This document shows positions 30,456 through 38,390 of a DNA stretch of 64,000 nt, one piece after another. Source of the stretch: Candidatus Bathyarchaeia archaeon (GTDB lineage Archaea > Thermoproteota > Bathyarchaeia > Bathyarchaeales > Bathycorpusculaceae); the NCBI GenBank assembly GCA_038882975.1, contig JAVZNE010000002.1:96001-160000 (forward strand), written 5' to 3'. The translations under genes were made by a program, and so were the position numbers. Below the pieces are notes generated by a model. It saw nothing but the letters and a program-made list of their open reading frames with translations. It was not told the DNA's origin and made no database searches. Within the stretch, counting starts at the first letter, position 1, and every line of letters starts with the position of its first letter.

Positions 30456-31052
30456 GTGTTGAAATTGAAGGACAAAGTTATAATTGGTATAGACTTGGCG
30501 GGCAAAGAGGAAAATCCAACGGGATTGGCAATTTGGCGAAATAAAACTGTGGAAACATGCCTAATTTACACAAACAAAGAAATTTTGGAAGAAGTATTTC
30601 AAGTAAACCCAAAAATTGTGGCAATAGATGCTCCACTAAAACTTCCAAAAAGTGGAATTTTTAGAAAAGCGGACAAGGAGCTCATCAAAAGGGGTTACCG
30701 CGTTTTTCCACCAGGCTTGCCAGCTATGAAAAAGCTAACCCTTCGGGCAATTGAGCTAAATAGGTTAATAATAAAGGGAGGCATACAAACAATAGAAGTG
30801 CACCCAACCTCAACAAGAAAGGCTTTGGGCATGCCGACAAAAGATTGGGAAGTCATTCAAAACATCCTAAAGTGCATAGGCCTAGCCGGGTCTCTAACCG
30901 AACATAGGCTAACGCCGCATGAAATAGACGCCATAACCGCAGCCCTAACGGGCGCGCTCTACATGGAAGACTTAACGGAATTTGTAGGTGACCATGAGGA
31001 AGGCTACATTGTAATTCCAATCAAACAAGATTGGAGGGAGATAAGGCTGTGA
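30456..31052 (+). CDS. DUF429 family predicted RNase H-like nuclease
   Basis: IGIDLA, AIDAPL, IEVHP, HEIDA motifs; stop overlaps DP1 start. Confidence 0.8.
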   Translation: MLKLKDKVIIGIDLAGKEENPTGLAIWRNKTVETCLIYTNKEILEEVFQVNPKIVAIDAPLKLPKSGIFRKADKELIKRGYRVFPPGLPAMKKLTLRAIELNRLIIKGGIQTIEVHPTSTRKALGMPTKDWEVIQNILKCIGLAGSLTEHRLTPHEIDAITAALTGALYMEDLTEFVGDHEEGYIVIPIKQDWREIRL

Positions 31053-32629
31053 GCTCTTCGGAGAAGCTTCAAAAAGCTGTGGAACTCACCATCGCAGCGG
31101 GATACCAGCTTAACAAAGAGGCGTTTGAGTTCTTAAACGAGGCATCTGCCACCGAAGATCCCATTGAAATTATGAGTAAAGCTTTAGCCAAAATAGAAAC
31201 ATTGAAGGATAAGCCACTTTTTATCGAAAGAAGCCTTCTAGAAGAGCTTGTAAGAAAGGCTGAACGGATTGAAGGCTCTCCTTTAACACCACAACTAAAA
31301 GAAGCCCCTTCACAATCAATCCTTCAAGAACAGCTTGTACAGCCACAACTAATCATTGAAGGAAAGAGGCTTTTCCGCCCCTACGCCAAAGAAGTGGAAG
31401 CCGAAATCGAAGTTATTGAAGATGCTGGCAGTAAACTAAGCTCAAGCGGAACATTGGAGGATTACCTTGAATACTTTCGAGACAGATTTAACCGAATTGA
31501 AAAGTTGCTAAGACAGAGGATAGACGTGCGAGGAGCGGTTTCAATTGCTGAAGCGGCAAGGGCTCCGCCCAACACAAAACTCAAAGTAATCGGCATGATA
31601 ACAGAGAAAAGAGAGGCTAAACAAAAAATTCTCTTAACATTGGAAGATCTCAGCGCAAGCGCCACTGTTCTGGTGCCGCAAAATGCTCCCTCCGACCTTT
31701 TAACCAAGGCAAGAGCCCTTTTGTTGGATGAGATTATTTGTGTTAGCGTAACTAAAACTCGCGGAAAATTGTTAATAGCAGAAGACATAATCCTTCCAGA
31801 TGTTGCCCCCAAAAATCAGAATAAGGCTCCTGTACCTGTTTATGCTGTGCTCACCTCAGATCTGCACGTGGGCAGCTTAAAATTCCGGGAAGAGTTTTTC
31901 AATAGGTTTGTTTTGTGGCTGAAGGGCGAATACGGAAATAGGCAAATGCAGGAAATAGCCAGCCACGTAAAATATGTTTTGATAGCCGGTGACATCGTTG
32001 ACGGTATAGGTGTATACCCAAATCAAGTTAAGGAACTTGCAATGAGGGACATTTATGGGCAATACAGGTTAGCCTCAAAGCTCATCGCACAAATCCCAGA
32101 CTACATTGAAGTGATAATTATTCCGGGAAACCACGACGCCCCCCGAAAGGCTTTACCCCAACCGCCGATTTCCGACGCGTTTTTGGAAACTCTGCATAAT
32201 TCACCTAATGTGCACTCCTTTGGAAATCCGTGTCGTCTAAGCCTCCACGGTGTTGAAGTTCTCATGTACCATGGGCGAAGCCTCGATGACATAATCTCCA
32301 CAGTCCCGGGAATAAATTATACCCAGCCGGAAAAAGCAATGACTCTACTTTTGCAGTGTCGCCACTTGGCGCCAGTTTATGGTGGAAAAACGCCGCTTGC
32401 GCCTGAGAGTAAAGACTGCCTTGTTATAGAACGTGTGCCTGACATTTTCCACGCCGGCCACATCCACACAGTCGGGCATGCAAACTATAGAGGTGTCACC
32501 GTCGTTAACTCTGGTTGTTGGCAAGAGCAGACGGAGTACATGCGGAGGCAAGGGTTCACTCCAATGCCGGGCTTGGTTCCAGTGGTAAATCTCCAAACAC
32601 TAGATGTTAGAATCCTTTCATTTGCCTAG
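31049..32629 (+). CDS. polD1: DNA polymerase D small (exonuclease) subunit DP1
   Basis: SDLHVGS, AGDIVDGIGVYP, PGNHD, YHGRSLDD, RHLAP, GHIH, NSGCWQ. Confidence 0.95.
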   Translation: MSSSEKLQKAVELTIAAGYQLNKEAFEFLNEASATEDPIEIMSKALAKIETLKDKPLFIERSLLEELVRKAERIEGSPLTPQLKEAPSQSILQEQLVQPQLIIEGKRLFRPYAKEVEAEIEVIEDAGSKLSSSGTLEDYLEYFRDRFNRIEKLLRQRIDVRGAVSIAEAARAPPNTKLKVIGMITEKREAKQKILLTLEDLSASATVLVPQNAPSDLLTKARALLLDEIICVSVTKTRGKLLIAEDIILPDVAPKNQNKAPVPVYAVLTSDLHVGSLKFREEFFNRFVLWLKGEYGNRQMQEIASHVKYVLIAGDIVDGIGVYPNQVKELAMRDIYGQYRLASKLIAQIPDYIEVIIIPGNHDAPRKALPQPPISDAFLETLHNSPNVHSFGNPCRLSLHGVEVLMYHGRSLDDIISTVPGINYTQPEKAMTLLLQCRHLAPVYGGKTPLAPESKDCLVIERVPDIFHAGHIHTVGHANYRGVTVVNSGCWQEQTEYMRRQGFTPMPGLVPVVNLQTLDVRILSFA

Positions 32630-33183
32630 GATAGACCACGAGCAATTAATCTAACAACACGGAGGGGTTCTGGCACCCGGCCACAAACAGTGGAACCCAC
32701 TATAAGGCGGATGGCCCATTCAGGTTCCGCTCCAACAACTTCAAAATATAATGGAGGCTCTCCATCTAGCACTTTCACCTCATGGATAGGCCCTAATCTT
32801 TCAAAAACTTTCCACCGTTCCCTCCAGTCTTTAAAATGTCGAATAAGTGCCCACTTTACCGCCTTATTATCGGGCTTCGTCCTTGCCACAACAATAACGG
32901 GTTTCCGAAACTTTTCATAGAGAACTAAAGGATCTATAATGTTAAAACCGGCAAAGGACACCCCAGCAAGCATAACAGCCTCAAAGTCCCATTGCTTAAG
33001 GAGGCCCGTGACTTTTTCCGTCGCATTGAAGCCGTCAACGGCTATCCACTCGAAAGCCACATCCTCAATTTTAAAGCCCTTGAAAAGAGCGGCGGCTAAA
33101 AGAGCCTTTCTATTAACACCTTTTACAAAGCTTCCATCTTCAATTCCTACTACCCGCATCCTTTGAAAGGCATTTAGGCTCAT
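32626..33183 (-). CDS. DUF99 family endonuclease V-like protein
   Basis: GIEDG, VDGFNAT, GVSFAGFNIID, PEPLRV motifs; coupled to cdc6. Confidence 0.85.
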   Translation of the reverse strand: MSLNAFQRMRVVGIEDGSFVKGVNRKALLAAALFKGFKIEDVAFEWIAVDGFNATEKVTGLLKQWDFEAVMLAGVSFAGFNIIDPLVLYEKFRKPVIVVARTKPDNKAVKWALIRHFKDWRERWKVFERLGPIHEVKVLDGEPPLYFEVVGAEPEWAIRLIVGSTVCGRVPEPLRVVRLIARGLS

Positions 33184-34387
33184 AATCGATCAAGCGTCCG
33201 AGCCTACTGTCATTAGAGAAGGCTTCTTTAATAAGGGTGCGTGTCACCTCCATGCGGATTTTTTTCGTACGTCCATAACGCCCCATACTTACAACCTGTG
33301 CGTTCAATAGTCCCAAAGCGTCAAGCTCGTTGACCAAAGTGCTTACGCGTCTTTGCGTTAGAGGTGTCACAGCCAATTCGCTGCAGAGCTCATTGTATAC
33401 CTCATATATTTCGCCAGTTACTGCACGGTAACCATTCGCCCTAACAAGATGGTAGACGCTCAACATTACAAGCTTCGAGTGTAAGGTCAAATTCGCTAAG
33501 GCATCAACAACTCTATTATGTTCTATGAGCCTCTCAGCCTCGCGGACGTGCTCTTCGGTTATGGCGCTTGCGCCTTTACGTTCTGCAACTTCACCAGCAA
33601 CCCTAAGCAGATCTAAAGCCCTTCGAGCATCACCATGCTCAGCAGCGGCCAAGGCGGCACAGAGGCTTAGTGCGCCTTCACTAAGCGCCCCTTCATGGAA
33701 CGCCATCTGTGCCCGCTCAGCTAAAATATTACGCAGTTCAGACGCATTGTAGGGCCGAAAGACAATTTCTTCCTCACTTAGCGAGCTTAAAACTCGGGGG
33801 TCTAAGAACTCTTTTAGGCGTAGATCGTTGGAAATGCCGATTATAGAGACTTTACTGCGAGCTAATGTTTCGTTAATTCTTGTAAGCTCGTATAAGAGAA
33901 TGTCGCTTCGCGCCTTTATTATAGCGTCTACTTCATCGAGGCCTATAATAAGTATCCTTTTAGCCACATCCAAGCCTTGCTTAAACCTATCAAAAACCTC
34001 GCCTAAAGATAGTCCAGTAAATGGAACGGCAAGGCGAATGCTCTGGCATAAGTTCGCGAGAACGCGGTACTCTGTCCCAGCTAAACGACAATTTACATAA
34101 CAAAAACTGACGGCGGCCCCTATCTCCTTTGCTTTTGCGTCCAAGCGATTCAGAACATACTTTGTCACAGCCGTCTTACCAGTCCCTGTTTTCCCATAGA
34201 CAAAGATATTAGAACACCTTGCACCCTTCAAAACTGGCGCTATTGCCTCTCCAAGTCGTCGAATCTGCTCTTCACGATGAGGAAGTCTTTCAGGCAAGTA
34301 GTCATGACGGAGAACCTCCCGGTCTTTAAACACCCCCGCAGCATTACAGAACCTATCAAAGACATCATCAAGTATAGCATCTTTCAT
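33140..34387 (-). CDS. cdc6: Orc1/Cdc6 replication initiator
   Basis: LPHREEQ, Walker A GKTGTGKT, LDEVD, GDARRALDLLR, wHTH wing GRYGRTK; ATG at 34387. Confidence 0.96.
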   Translation of the reverse strand: MKDAILDDVFDRFCNAAGVFKDREVLRHDYLPERLPHREEQIRRLGEAIAPVLKGARCSNIFVYGKTGTGKTAVTKYVLNRLDAKAKEIGAAVSFCYVNCRLAGTEYRVLANLCQSIRLAVPFTGLSLGEVFDRFKQGLDVAKRILIIGLDEVDAIIKARSDILLYELTRINETLARSKVSIIGISNDLRLKEFLDPRVLSSLSEEEIVFRPYNASELRNILAERAQMAFHEGALSEGALSLCAALAAAEHGDARRALDLLRVAGEVAERKGASAITEEHVREAERLIEHNRVVDALANLTLHSKLVMLSVYHLVRANGYRAVTGEIYEVYNELCSELAVTPLTQRRVSTLVNELDALGLLNAQVVSMGRYGRTKKIRMEVTRTLIKEAFSNDSRLGRLIDYEPKCLSKDAGSRN

Positions 34388-34528
34388 TAGCACTCCTTCC
34401 TCCTGTTTGTCACATAGTATTTGCCCTTTACTCCAAGAGTGGAAAAATAAGGCATACCATATAGAAAAGTGAACAAGCAACAGAAAAATTCTAAAAATTA
34501 ATGAACAGTCCGCATTAGAAAAAGAGAG

Positions 34529-34554
34529 ACACCCCCCGATTTCAACTGGAAAAC
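34529..34554 (-). promoter_or_regulatory. Origin recognition box ORB1
   Basis: Minus strand GTTTTCCAGTTGAAATCGGGGGGTGT matches TCCA-N3-GAAA plus G-string ORB pattern. Confidence 0.85.
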
Positions 34555-34715
34555 TCTTAAGCTTTTAGGTGTAGCTTGTTTCTTCTAAGGAAAAGAAAAT
34601 ACTCTGAAAGGTTAGAGCATCACCAAAAGTAAAAAGCTTCACATAGAAGTTTTTATACCAAAGCTTCAAATGATTAGCACACGACTTTTAACAAGATTTT
34701 AACTTTTTAATATTC

Positions 34716-34740
34716 CTCCAGCGGAAATAATGGGGTGGTG
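34716..34740 (+). promoter_or_regulatory. Origin recognition box ORB2
   Basis: CTCCAGCGGAAATAATGGGGTGGTG. Confidence 0.88.
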
Positions 34741-34939
34741 GGCTACATCCCTTCTTACCATGGTGAACTAATAAAATACTTGAAATTTCAGTTTTGTAGT
34801 GTAACCGCCATAATGGAGTAAGTGACCCATAATTTTGTTCACGCTTTGTGAAAACCTTGTGAAGTTTATTTAGTTTTGGTATTTTTATTTTCTCCTTTTC
34901 CATAATTGTTGCTATTTTTATGTCTCTTTTCTGTGAAAA

Positions 34940-34965
34940 CACCACCCCATCTTTTCTATTGGAAG
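34940..34965 (-). promoter_or_regulatory. Origin recognition box ORB3 (inverted relative to ORB2)
   Basis: Minus strand CTTCCAATAGAAAAGATGGGGTGGTG; shares ATGGGGTGGTG with ORB2; the two flank a T-rich tract at about 34865-34930. Confidence 0.83.
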
Positions 34966-35163
34966 CCGCAAGTATTGTTTGTTATTCTGTCCGTTTTCAC
35001 AAAGATCACTTTTGTGAAGTACGTTATTTAGAATCTTTGGAAATATAGCTTCTTATACTCTTTTCGGCTTTTAATTGCCTTTTTTATTTCCTTAGGTTCA
35101 CCGTAATAGCTATATCTTGTGAAGTGTAAAACTTGTGAAAAGAATTTACAGGTGCCAGTAATA

Positions 35164-35598
35164 GTGCCAGCTAGGAAAATGCGAATCGAAGTATTCGACA
35201 ATGAGGGCAACAAATATAGCATAGCCTTTGAAGGGCAGATTACACGAGATAAAGCCCTTCGCCTTTTAGATTTGGTGGAGTTACTGGGTGGAGTTGCATC
35301 AAGCGGAACCAACTCGGGGGTCAGTGTTACGACTATTGAAAAGTCAAAATATGATAGGCTCTTGGCTGTCCTTCAGAAGCATTTTCCGATAGTTTGGTTT
35401 TCGTCAAAAGAGGTTCAAGCGGTCTACGAGCAAGAGTTTAAGGAGCCTATAAACCTAAGCACGGTGGCCACATACCTTTCCCGGATGGCTAACAAAGGGT
35501 TTCTTATCAAAGCCGGGGCCTCTAACCGTCTTAAATACAAAATAGCGCCCAGTCTGCCACAAGTTGTGGTAAAACATTACGCATCAAACGAGGGTTAG
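35164..35598 (+). CDS. Uncharacterised protein with small N-terminal beta domain and C-terminal winged helix
   Basis: WFSSKEVQAVYEQEF-EPINLSTVATYLSRMANKGFL looks like wHTH; GTG at 35164 behind AGGTG. Confidence 0.75.
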   Translation: MPARKMRIEVFDNEGNKYSIAFEGQITRDKALRLLDLVELLGGVASSGTNSGVSVTTIEKSKYDRLLAVLQKHFPIVWFSSKEVQAVYEQEFKEPINLSTVATYLSRMANKGFLIKAGASNRLKYKIAPSLPQVVVKHYASNEG

Positions 35599-35606
35599 CT
35601 TGTTTC

Positions 35607-36320
35607 TTAAGCGGTCTCCGTCTCTGCTTTCTTCAAAAATTTTTCCATTTCCTTCTTCACGTTATACCTAAAGGGAATTTTACTAGAATCCCTTTCCAAA
35701 TAACCTTCCTCATAAAGCTTCTTCATAAGCCTGGCTGTGTGCTCTCTGCTAAGCCCAATTCTTTCCTTAATCTCCGGAGCTGTTTTAGGGCCCTCGGCAG
35801 CCAGCATCTCCAACACCGCTAACTCTGTTTCCGTTAACTTTGCTAACGCTTTTTCCCTTTTTATTGGTATGACAGTTTCAACTCTAAGCTCGGGTAAAGT
35901 TGGCACATTTTGAGTTCGCTCTTCAATAATTGAAACTTTGGCGAGGATCTCCTTATGAGACTCGACGATGTCACGCGTCTGCCTTTCTAAATCACTTAGC
36001 CGAGTTAACAGATGCTCCCTATCCTCCAAGATTCCCTTTGCTTTGCCTTCCAAAAGTTTTAGCCGATTCTCTAACTCTTTAACAGCCTTTAATGCATCGC
36101 TACCCTTAGCGGAAGCGGCCTCAACTTTGTAAGAAAATGCTTGCAAGCTTTCCGTTGCACGCTTAAGCTCCCTACTAAAACTTAAGATTATATCATTAAA
36201 AGCTTCCTTAGCCTTCCCATACTCTTTCCTAATTTTGACAAGATTCTTGTAATATCCGACCGCAGCACCAACAGCCACGGCTAAGAAAGCACATGAGACA
36301 AAGATTAAAAGGTCAATCAT
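35607..36320 (-). CDS. Membrane-anchored coiled-coil protein with C-terminal winged-helix DNA-binding domain
   Basis: N-terminal hydrophobic helix, heptad-rich middle, then LTETELAVLEML-GPKTAPEIKERIGLSREHTARLMKKLYEEGYLER. Confidence 0.8.
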   Translation of the reverse strand: MIDLLIFVSCAFLAVAVGAAVGYYKNLVKIRKEYGKAKEAFNDIILSFSRELKRATESLQAFSYKVEAASAKGSDALKAVKELENRLKLLEGKAKGILEDREHLLTRLSDLERQTRDIVESHKEILAKVSIIEERTQNVPTLPELRVETVIPIKREKALAKLTETELAVLEMLAAEGPKTAPEIKERIGLSREHTARLMKKLYEEGYLERDSSKIPFRYNVKKEMEKFLKKAETETA

Positions 36321-36370
36321 GTGATATCCCCCGTGACTTCCTTAAAGTAACGTGTGACCTTATCATGTTG

Positions 36371-36587
36371 CATCACAAATCACACTTTTAACACTAAACC
36401 TTTTAAAGATTATGGTCCCTCATGGAACATATGACATCACAAATCACAGAAACTTCTATCCACACGAATACAAATATTGTTGCGAGAAAAGTACATTTTC
36501 CACTTCTTTTAGCTATTTAGCCTTATTCTATGCCTTATTTTTCTACCTGGAATGATCGTGGTTTTTGCTATGTGATTTGTGATGTCA
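36371..36587. repeat. Three copies of CATCACAAATCACA; two form a perfect 17-bp inverted repeat
   Basis: 36371-36384 CATCACAAATCACA; 36432-36448 TGACATCACAAATCACA; 36571-36587 TGTGATTTGTGATGTCA (exact reverse complement). Confidence 0.9.
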
Positions 36588-37061
36588 CGTGAAGCCCTCC
36601 GACGGGTTTGAGAGCGCTTTTAAGCTATTTTCGAGTTCTTCTCTTAACATTTTAAGGAATTTTATTTGCTCCTCTGGTTGTTCAGGTTTATTCGGCAAGT
36701 CTTTGTGGGCTTCTATGTATTCTTGTAGTTTGTTTGCGATTTCAAGATACTGGTCAAGAGTTGTGCTTTCGAAGATTCCTAAATACCCTAAAAGCAGCAC
36801 GGTGTAGATCGCCTTTATAACGTTTTCCTGAGCCTGTTTTAAAGTTCTGTTAAAGGCGCCTCGGCTTATTTTTGCCTTTGTTAGTCGTAATCTGGCTTTT
36901 TCATCGTATTTTAATGGTTTTCCCAAAATATTTTCGGCTAAAACGTCTATTAGCAATGTTTCTAGCTGCGTTTTTGTTAAGTGGCTGTTTTTTGCCAGTA
37001 TTTTGACTATGGGGTCTTCTAAAGATTTTTTTAGCCATAATTGCACGCTGTTTTTTAACAT
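36585..37061 (-). CDS. Uncharacterised helical protein with probable HTH
   Basis: SHLTKTQLETLL...KISRGAFNRTLKQAQENV resembles a sigma-region-4-like HTH; C-terminal coiled coil. Confidence 0.65.
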   Translation of the reverse strand: MLKNSVQLWLKKSLEDPIVKILAKNSHLTKTQLETLLIDVLAENILGKPLKYDEKARLRLTKAKISRGAFNRTLKQAQENVIKAIYTVLLLGYLGIFESTTLDQYLEIANKLQEYIEAHKDLPNKPEQPEEQIKFLKMLREELENSLKALSNPSEGFT

Positions 37062-37208
37062 CTCCGCTTTTCTCCCATAAGGTTGTGCTTGTTGAATACA
37101 TTTTTGTATACGGCCCTTTTAAAAGAGTTTTGCCCAAACATTAAAAACCGTGCCTTCTAGTCGCAACCATTATATGCTCATCCGTGTAACGCGTAATGAG
37201 GAGCGCAT

Positions 37209-38390
37209 TTGAAGTTGCAATTTAAGGCAGCCGAACGCCTGAAATGCATAAAGCCCTCTGGAATTCGCCGATTTTTTGCTTTGGCCCAAGAAATTCCCGA
37301 TATAATTAATTTAAGTGTGGGGGAGCCGGATTTTACGCCGCCCATACACGCCCTAGAGGGAGGTTGGAAGGCCACATTAGCGGGTAAAATACACTACGCT
37401 CCAACAAATGGTATCCCAGAACTTAGAGAGGCTCTAGCTGAGAAGGCTCGTGTGGAATACGGCCTTCAATATGACCCAAAATCTGAGGTATTAGTAACTG
37501 TTGGCGGGACAGAGGCGATTTCCCTTGCCTTGATGGCGCTAGTTAATCCTGGTGATGAAGTGTTGATACCTAATCCTGGTTTTGTCTGTTATGAGCCTAG
37601 CGTTAGATTGGCGGGCGGCATTCCCGTTTCAATCCCCATTTTGGAGAAAAATGGGTTTAAGCCCTCTATTGATGATGTGACGTCACTTATCACGGAAAAA
37701 TCACGTGTGATGATTCTAAACTATCCAAACAATCCGACAGGGACGATTCTATCATACAATGAGCTTAAGGCGTTAGCCAAAATTGCTGTTGAACGTGATT
37801 TGATTGTGATTTCGGATGAAGTCTACGAGAAAATAATATACGATGGAGAAAAGCACCACTGCGTGGCGACTTTTCCGGAAATGCGGGAGCGCACATTAGT
37901 TGTAAACTCTTTTTCTAAAACCTATGCAATGACCGGTTTAAGGGTTGGTTATGTTTACGGTCCTAAGGAGCTTATCGCCCCTCTATGGCTCTGCCACCAG
38001 TATTTTGTTGCTTGTGTAGATACTTTTGCGCAGTATGCCGCGTTAGCCGCCTTAGAAGGGCCACAGGGCTTCGTTAAGGAGATGGTAGCTGAATTTAATA
38101 GGCGAAGACTTTTTGTTTTTAAGAGACTGAATGAGATTGGTGGATTTAGCTGTGTCCTTCCGAAAGGCGCTTTTTACATGTTCCCAAGCATAAAGGCCTT
38201 TAACATGTCTTCAGAGGATTTTGCCCAATTCCTACTTAAAGAGGCACGAGTTGCCACCGTTCCGGGTTCTGCTTTCGGTTCTTATGGTGAAGGGTACATT
38301 AGAATTTCCTATGCCGCAGCTTATGAACAGTTGGAAGAGGCTTTCAACAGCATAGAGAAAGCCGTTAAAAAAATCAAGGGCCATTTTTAG
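37209..38390 (+). CDS. PLP-dependent aminotransferase class I/II (aspartate aminotransferase-like)
   Basis: GEPDF, NYPNNPTG, SDEVY, SFSKTYAMTGLRVG. Confidence 0.92.
   Translation: MKLQFKAAERLKCIKPSGIRRFFALAQEIPDIINLSVGEPDFTPPIHALEGGWKATLAGKIHYAPTNGIPELREALAEKARVEYGLQYDPKSEVLVTVGGTEAISLALMALVNPGDEVLIPNPGFVCYEPSVRLAGGIPVSIPILEKNGFKPSIDDVTSLITEKSRVMILNYPNNPTGTILSYNELKALAKIAVERDLIVISDEVYEKIIYDGEKHHCVATFPEMRERTLVVNSFSKTYAMTGLRVGYVYGPKELIAPLWLCHQYFVACVDTFAQYAALAALEGPQGFVKEMVAEFNRRRLFVFKRLNEIGGFSCVLPKGAFYMFPSIKAFNMSSEDFAQFLLKEARVATVPGSAFGSYGEGYIRISYAAAYEQLEEAFNSIEKAVKKIKGHF

Follow-up and report, generated by a model that had tools for sequence, protein, structure and literature searches.

Which proteins besides Orc1/Cdc6 act at a bathyarchaeal replication origin, and could they be encoded at the origin itself? 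This question is raised by a locus in a 64 kb stretch of DNA (the window, G000:C2:96001-160000; plain coordinates are window positions) from a 94.7% complete Bathyarchaeia genome of 1.42 Mb, where three genes, here called P1, P2 and P3, adjoin an orc1/cdc6 gene and its origin. To our knowledge, the regulation of archaeal origins past Orc1/Cdc6 is largely unknown outside Sulfolobus, and we know of no settled account of origin positioning and segregation in archaea without SegAB. A preliminary description of this DNA had claimed the three genes, and all are present as open reading frames where it placed them; in the literature that was searched, subscription papers being outside its scope, the trio is nowhere described. 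Our comparisons suggest, though we are evenly divided between belief and doubt, that the trio is an ancient, self-contained module of DNA-binding proteins which is autoregulated and acts on the adjoining origin.

Conservation of the trio and of its origin

The origin, with its origin recognition boxes (ORBs), and the three genes are laid out as follows:

33140-34390, reverse strand: orc1/cdc6 initiator gene (NCBIfam ORC1-type 9.3e-152; Pfam Cdc6_C 1.8e-28, and Cdc6_lid)
34531-34551, reverse strand: ORB1 (dyad and G-string), found by pattern scan and sequence, kept in orthologous spacers
34717-34740, forward strand: ORB2, arm of inverted pair I2, TCCAGCGGAAATAATGGGGTGGTG
34860-34930, no strand: AT-rich, T-rich stretch between ORB2 and ORB3, candidate unwinding element
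34940-34963, reverse strand: ORB3, the other arm of I2, found by pattern scan
35164-35598, forward strand: P1, with an N-terminal beta-hairpin and helix, a linker and a C-terminal winged helix (predicted model)
35607-36320, reverse strand: P2, with a membrane anchor, a coiled-coil-like spacer of ~130 residues and a MarR/TrmB-type winged helix (Pfam and hydropathy)
36585-37061, reverse strand: P3, all-helical (predicted model, pLDDT 86.8, from 39 sequences)

By its sequence, the locus is an Orc1/Cdc6-dependent chromosomal origin. The first ORB lies 141 nucleotides (nt) upstream of cdc6 in a cdc6-P1 spacer of 773 nt, and the two arms of pair I2 are 79% complementary, their G-strings facing each other over the AT-rich stretch, where the AT content of the spacer reaches its maximum (80% at 34860-34920, in 40-nt windows). 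The three-ORB layout is common to the orthologous spacers of 20 related genomes, and the ORBs themselves are conserved. Cumulative GC skew along contig C2 has just a local dip near 130 kb, which is not decisive for the start of replication.

A synteny survey had been suggested in the preliminary description, and in the one made here the three genes stay together beside cdc6 and the origin far past the genus. We searched 41 genomes of the same order, all of which have a cdc6 orthologue or paralogue, and found P1 in 33, P2 in 32 and P3 in 36, with one strong full-length match each (G027 has an additional weak second P1 match); in the 20 orthologous regions that were fetched the order cdc6-origin-P1-P2-P3 was kept throughout (20/20). 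A species-level scan, with one genome per species, gave 453 stretches with a P3 relative. Among the best 80, the complete block was present in 68, the remaining 12 end at contig ends and no alternative arrangement was seen; the gene past P3 differs between these loci. As related genomes are non-independent samples, these counts and those given below overstate statistical weight. A P3 profile had matches in 99 of the 201 genomes of a phylum sample, in single copy except in G188 (two fragments at contig ends), and 40 distant loci were fetched. In 27 of them cdc6 is accompanied by two or all three genes of the trio. Nine of these 27 come from one family of complete genomes (1.6-1.9 Mb) with P1 relatives that are named Nitrosarchaeum or Nitrosopumilales (here ammonia-oxidiser-type). 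Of the other distant loci, two end in ORB-like elements right by P1/P2, one has P3 alone and one is ended by its contig. Where the trio is not adjacent to cdc6, a cdc6 orthologue is found 14-60 kb off on the same contig in each of the four genomes whose contig allows it. The possibility of a mobile element or defence island was rejected, since the genes are single-copy, vertically inherited and in fixed order. With 2519 relatives of P1 and 3231 of P3 in the protein collection, the genes are orphans, as they had been called, in having no described family, but they are not rare.

Between ORB1 and ORB2, a block that is conserved across the order (34578-34612) consists of ATACTC..AAAGGT preceded by the inverted repeat TTTCTT...AAGAAA. 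A TATA-like GAGTATTTTC is seen in it on the cdc6 strand, and the block may be the cdc6 promoter, in which case ORB1 would lie just downstream of the transcript start. A second Orc1/Cdc6 paralogue, of 34% identity, is encoded at G000:C1:67043-68146, with no ORB-like or TGTGA cluster within 750 nt on either side. The genes flanking the block are:

31031-32629, forward strand: DNA polymerase D small-subunit-like gene
32626-33183, reverse strand: endonuclease dU gene
37209-38390, forward strand: aminotransferase gene, beyond P3

In many relatives, additional genes are found within the block. A HerA-like P-loop ATPase gene (DUF87) and a NurA-like gene are located between P1 and P2 in 30 of the 80 species loci and 11 of the 20 order-level loci, as an insert of 2.6-3 kb with the same direction as P1 (for example L017:3554-6137 and L030:3618-6195, with DUF87 E 1e-11 to 1e-13, and a NurA match of E 9.4e-4 for one of the two genes tested). 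P1 is followed there by the NurA-like and HerA-like genes, an arrangement from which the trio could be read as regulators or accessories of the pair, a DNA-end-processing or defence-like system, and in this genus as the remnant left after loss of the pair. We regard this as highly improbable, as the trio is strongly conserved in loci that have no such pair (P3 has a mean column identity of 69%), the pair was not detected in the 40 distant loci carrying trio genes, and a protein query did not find it in this genome, where it is absent between P1 and P2 (35598 to 35607). This genome has a separate DUF87 gene at G000:C3:78512-79111. The three proteins had been described as having no Walker A motif, and indeed there is no P-loop gene between cdc6 and the aminotransferase gene of this genome. 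The system had been called ParA-less; as a motor-less system it is confined to this genus because of the HerA-like ATPase at the 30 related loci.

Some distant lineages have a fourth gene between P2 and P3 (L118:8927-9562, L129:9030-9614), which by its sequence looks like an XRE-type helix-turn-helix (HTH) fused to a CBS pair. Its start region in L118 carries TGTGA...TCACATGTGA sites, and its homologues in this genome are outside the cluster (C8:6615, C10:25313).

Two repeat sub-families with a TGTGA core

The repeats TGTGA/TCACA that had been noted in and around the origin are real, conserved and interleaved with the ORBs, but they form not one family but two: the first, TGTGAA, is that of the origin and the P1 promoter and the second, ATCACA-N-ATCACA, that of the P2 promoter, both with a TGTGA core. 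Of the 92 TGTGA/TCACA in the window, 16 sit in 34430-37200, and among 14,180 overlapping 400-nt windows of the 1.42 Mb genome the three with the highest TGTGA density are all at this locus (8, 8 and 7, vs a mean of 0.55). No common motif was seen in the other dense windows (C7:37.5 kb, C2:42 kb), which consist mostly of coding DNA. The sole other non-coding cluster among them, at G000:C7:31290-31330, is an intergenic TGTGAtgtTGTGA pair with another TGTGA 40 nt on. All promoters mentioned here were assigned from sequence, that of P1 via the archaeal TATA-to-start spacing. The boxes of the first sub-family in the window are:

34847-34863, forward strand: TGTGAA-N5-TGTGAA pair (34847, 34858) on the ORB2 side of the AT-rich stretch, found once in the genome
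34932-34937, forward strand: TGTGAA box abutting ORB3, which together with the 34847/34858 pair brackets the AT-rich stretch
34996-35018, no strand: TTCACA (34996) and TGTGAA (35013) beyond ORB3, inverted pair I11, found by motif scan
35097-35139, forward strand: putative P1 core promoter with a conserved TATA-like TTCACCGTAATAGCTATATC, then TTGTGAA-N9-TTGTGAA (boxes at 35117 and 35133)

Unbiased k-mer counts over 21 order-level loci had ORB words and TGTGAA as the top k-mers of the cdc6-P1 spacers; TGTGAA was observed 114 times vs 11 expected, with at least two copies in all 21. The 80 species loci provided 69 cdc6-P1 spacers and 78 P2-P3 spacers that were evaluable in the motif survey, and every one of the 69 has at least four TGTGAA. 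The positions of the boxes recur as well. A TGTGA pair, 4-7 nt apart, is present within the spacer in 15 of the 21 order-level and 46 of the 69 species loci, and 16 and 41 of them, respectively, have a TGTGA at a distance of exactly 7 nt from the ORB3 ACCC, with varying letters in the 7 nt. The two-site pattern lies at most 110 nt from the P1 start in 15/21 order-level and 61/69 species loci; in the genome studied here TTGTGAA-N9-TTGTGAA occurs once, at the P1 promoter. Cdc6-proximal origins that are 14-60 kb away from the trio are also rich in boxes, with 8-13 GTGAA per 750 nt vs a background of 1.2-1.7 (4/4). No TGTGAA enrichment was found upstream of cdc6 in G033, G043 and G061, which have no P1 and P3, or in G048, where P1 is remote; in these genomes the ORB cluster is also absent or the contig ends.

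The second sub-family occupies the P2-P3 spacer, which is 264 nt long in the window:

36368-36384, forward strand: putative P2 operator site 1 (ATCACA-A-ATCACA), direct repeat D6, 29.2 bits, between the TATA-like box and the P2 start
36400-36416, reverse strand: TATA-like box of the putative P2 promoter (CTTTTAAAGATTATGGT on the forward strand)
36432-36448, forward strand: putative P2 operator site 2 (TGACATCACAAATCACA), repeats D6 and I5, 30.3 bits, the best of the genome, upstream of the TATA-like box
36571-36587, reverse strand: putative P2 operator site 3, inverted, repeat I5, 100% complementary to site 2, 29.7 bits, overlapping the P3 stop codon

ATCACA was the top k-mer of these spacers at the order level (114 observed vs 4 expected, at least two copies in 21/21 loci), and a TTTAA[AG] motif was present in 19 of the 21. 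The site consensus is TGTGACATCACAnATCACA, and in the window the sites take the composite form TGTGAC-ATCACA-N-ATCACA, the three of them bracketing the P2 promoter. A weight matrix trained on the 20 other loci, with the window excluded, ranked these three sites as the top three of the whole genome (29-30 bits), followed by matches of 21.7 and 18.2 bits. The match of 21.7 bits, ATGTGACGTCACTTATCACGG, is inside the aminotransferase gene at 37675-37702, ~600 nt past the P3 start. The word TCACAnnTCACA occurs at three places in the 1.42 Mb of the genome, each of them between P2 and P3; in the species loci the P2-P3 spacer has at least one copy in 78/78, at least two in 76 and at least three in 61. 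An Rfam search of 34300-37300 returned a single chance-level row (bxd_6, E 0.16), so the conserved spacers are not explained by any known RNA.

The three proteins and the motif probably read by P2

P1 starts at the GTG at 35164, as supported by comparison with 20 orthologues, with a GGTG Shine-Dalgarno sequence at 35150-35154. In its predicted model (pLDDT 70.5, from 20 sequences), residues 3-41 form a beta-hairpin and helix and residues 62-127 a winged helix, joined by a linker of low confidence; the N-terminal part contributes many of the columns that are invariant in the protein. Residues 59-130 resemble a Fur-type DNA-binding domain (Z 10.6, root-mean-square deviation 2.5, 70 aligned), and the best Foldseek matches, with E about 3e-3, were to RosR, Fur and MecI. 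A PadR-family chain (Z 8.2) is one among many generic winged-helix fold matches. In Pfam there were sub-threshold matches to Penicillinase_R (18.7 bits vs a cut-off of 22.6) and MCM_C, and nothing else. Relatives of P1 and P3 are named 'hypothetical protein' in their sources, apart from a few 'BlaI/MecI/CopY' labels for P1. A repressor of the BlaI/MecI/CopY type was rejected on that sub-threshold score and on the position of the winged helix, which is C-terminal and not N-terminal.

P2 is, by its sequence, a MarR/TrmB-domain protein of atypical architecture, in agreement with the membrane-spanning, coiled-coil and winged-helix parts that had been described for it. The domain, residues 162-213 of 237, scored above the cut-offs of Pfam MarR (2.8e-08, 33.9 bits vs 24.6) and TrmB (30.6 vs 25.6), and well below those of NCBIfam Lrs14 (26.4 bits vs 90) and Sta1 (22.2 vs 80). 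All 20 orthologues have an N-terminal hydrophobic segment with K/R after it, the 19-residue hydropathy maximum (1.87-2.75) falling at residues 1-5. As just 1-5 residues precede the membrane helix, P2 appears to have no outside sensor part. The spacer of ~130 residues is poorly conserved, with weak coiled-coil-type Pfam matches.

In the model of P3, residues 25-99 are probably a sigma-4/LuxR-like HTH and residues 100-158 form a generic helical hairpin. The former had weak fold matches to the DNA-binding domain of EsrB (7vim_A, Z 7.2, 63 aligned), and P3 also matched sigma region 4 weakly (1ku7_A, TMt 0.64, E 5.9). Distant members have sub-threshold Sigma70_r4 matches (E 0.044 in one). P3 of the window had no Pfam match, a sequence profile search against the PDB gave no meaningful match, and Foldseek of the model gave none at E <= 0.001. 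No characterised metabolic regulator was recognised among the three proteins, as the preliminary description had held: P1 and P3 have no Pfam match above the cut-off, and P2 has the generic MarR/TrmB winged helix alone.

The recognition helix of P2, SREHT[AS]RLMKKLY, is nearly unchanged from Bathyarchaeia to the ammonia-oxidiser-type loci, and ATCACA is the top word of the P2-P3 spacers there too (35 vs 1.3 expected, 9/9 loci). The L128 lineage has an altered P2 helix and TTTACA repeats in place of ATCACA, and two other families have TGTGA palindromes ahead of a P3-P2 pair. This co-conservation, together with the shift in L128 and the palindromes, fits a P2 that binds the ATCACA array and represses its own promoter.

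A possible role at the origin and its relation to known systems

How might such a module act? P2 would be a membrane-anchored, dimeric winged-helix protein that sits on the ATCACA array and shuts its own promoter, and when bound to the array it would keep the DNA there, 1.5 kb away from the ORBs, at the cell membrane. P1, either alone or together with P3, would repress the P1 promoter from the TGTGAA boxes and, placed beside Orc1 at ORB3 and flanking the unwinding region, could modulate helicase loading or origin firing. In this way the origin would be coupled to the supply, itself autoregulated, of the proteins that bind it. A broader version, which we offer only tentatively and consider unlikely, is that of an ancestral origin organiser of Bathyarchaeia and ammonia-oxidising Nitrososphaeria, in which P2 pins the DNA near the origin to the membrane via its private ATCACA array, and P1 with P3, on boxes that differ by lineage (TGTGAA or GTTAAC) and are interleaved with the ORBs, gates the loading of the helicase or the firing of the origin.

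Several findings weigh against a role at the origin. The sites are on the core promoters of P1 and P2, which suggests that they serve, at least in part, in plain autoregulation, and this would account for much with no origin function at all. The neighbourhood from the DNA polymerase D small-subunit gene through cdc6 to the trio is syntenic as a whole, and the linkage may perhaps be due in part to inheritance and not to selection. In five families P3 is accompanied by P2 and/or P1 with no cdc6 in the fetched DNA, the HTH of P3 was called from weak matches alone, and the motif found at the origin does not follow P1 closely, as described below. A simpler explanation is that the three are ordinary autoregulated transcription factors whose boxes tune P1 and perhaps cdc6, the position at oriC being inherited or dosage-linked. 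This is possible, if rather on the unlikely side. It agrees with the shared synteny, with the P1 operators (35117-35139) standing past the TATA-like box and ahead of the expected start and the P2 operators on either side of their own TATA-like box, with the persistence of the trio away from cdc6 in some families, and with the generic nature of the P2 domain. However, regulators with strong sites at their own genes alone have no output, and the boxes stand at a fixed 7 nt from ORB3 and on both sides of the AT-rich stretch, at 200-300 nt from the P1 promoter. They also remain at origins 14-60 kb from the trio, and the anchor of P2, with 1-5 residues before its helix, has no outside sensor part to serve.

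TGTGAA is, from these comparisons, an origin feature in several families, with P1 as one candidate reader. The assignment of the boxes to P1, possibly with P3, is weak because origins with another word retain nearly the same P1 helix: the ammonia-oxidiser-type origins (L130, L131, L144-L150) have GTTAAC (33 vs 1.6 expected, at least two in 9/9) and not TGTGAA, with an almost unchanged P1 helix, and L128 has GTTAACA boxes with a P1 helix of the Bathyarchaeia type. Moreover, where P1 is unlinked from cdc6, GTGAA/TGTGA boxes were found at its promoter in 2-3 of 7 genomes. It may be that the boxes are read by another protein, such as the second Orc1/Cdc6 paralogue or a nucleoid protein, and that the trio shares the motif core by descent or chance. 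The unclear co-variation of P1 helix and motif, the frequent lack of a box at P1 promoters unlinked from the origin, and the existence of the paralogue, which has no ORB/TGTGA cluster of its own, would be in line with such a reader. We nevertheless find it improbable, since the P1 core promoter is covered by the same box in 61 of the 69 species loci and the P2 promoter is flanked by related boxes, which is the usual mark of a locally encoded binder.

The module that we propose offers three conserved candidate proteins and exact DNA sites, and thousands of environmental genomes contain it, as do, by the source names of the relatives, culturable ammonia oxidisers. Even if the three turn out to be plain autoregulators, two or three DNA-binding families would be newly defined, along with their operators, and the trio would still be a reliable oriC marker for Bathyarchaeia bins.

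Among the known systems, SegAB and AspA-ParB-ParA resemble the trio in having a site-specific binder with clustered cis sites by its own gene. They differ in that they need a Walker ATPase and use ribbon-helix-helix, ParB or PadR-like binders. A partition system (ParABS, SegAB or AspA-ParBA) was therefore rejected, as the Walker ATPase is missing from this cluster and that of the relatives is HerA-like (DUF87) and not ParA. The Pfam listings of P1 and P3, which extend to E 1, and the best 25 of 29 families of P2 include no ParB, ribbon-helix-helix or PadR family. WhiP, a Cdt1-like initiator with tandem winged helices at Sulfolobus oriC3, an origin without ORBs, is likewise an origin-adjacent winged-helix protein. 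An initiator of this type was also rejected, since the P1 model has a single winged helix with a beta-hairpin. The origin here also differs, being of the ORB/Orc1 type. The MarR/TrmB regulators Lrs14, Sta1 and TrmB are similar to P2 in its C-terminal domain and in the sites that bracket its own promoter; the known members are soluble, whereas P2 has a membrane anchor and the long spacer.

In Bacillus, Noc and RacA recognise particular sites on the chromosome and keep the DNA there at the membrane. RicO of S. aureus is a further site-specific DNA binder that, in the available text of its report, holds DNA at the membrane (bioRxiv 10.64898/2026.03.06.710092). The likeness is in the clustered specific sites near the origin and the membrane-binding part, with tethering at our locus predicted from sequence. 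There is no homology to these proteins, P2 being built of a transmembrane helix at the N-terminus, a long coiled coil and a winged helix of the MarR type.

The nearest functional analogue, judged by likeness of arrangement, would be UBP with its motif ucm. As far as the available text of the source describes it, UBP reads ucm, a non-ORB motif between ORB2 and ORB3 of Sulfolobus oriC1 that is essential for firing, and is a beta-rich, saddle-shaped nucleoid protein with more than 300 sites, restricted to Sulfolobales and Desulfurococcales (Dhanaraju et al., 2025, PMC12141716). At our locus, TGTGAA at 34847, 34858 and 34932 is likewise a short non-ORB motif between inverted ORBs, at the candidate unwinding region; the reader of ucm is a small non-initiator protein, and here there are candidate readers only. 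UBP is not described as origin-encoded in the available text (PMC12141716), whereas the winged-helix/HTH candidates are encoded at the origin. The folds also differ, as the P1 model has a beta-hairpin and a winged helix and that of P3 is all-helical, and UBP was absent among the fold matches listed for the two. Against the many genomic sites of UBP, the composite sites are private to this locus, single 6-nt boxes being too short to assess. The same source, in its available text, asks about analogues in other lineages (Dhanaraju et al., 2025), a question that the conserved candidates with their sites, in culturable hosts, make directly testable. If the broader version, with its ancestral origin organiser, is true, archaea would have their first origin-to-membrane tether, and the task of UBP in Sulfolobus would have a second solution, unrelated to the first.

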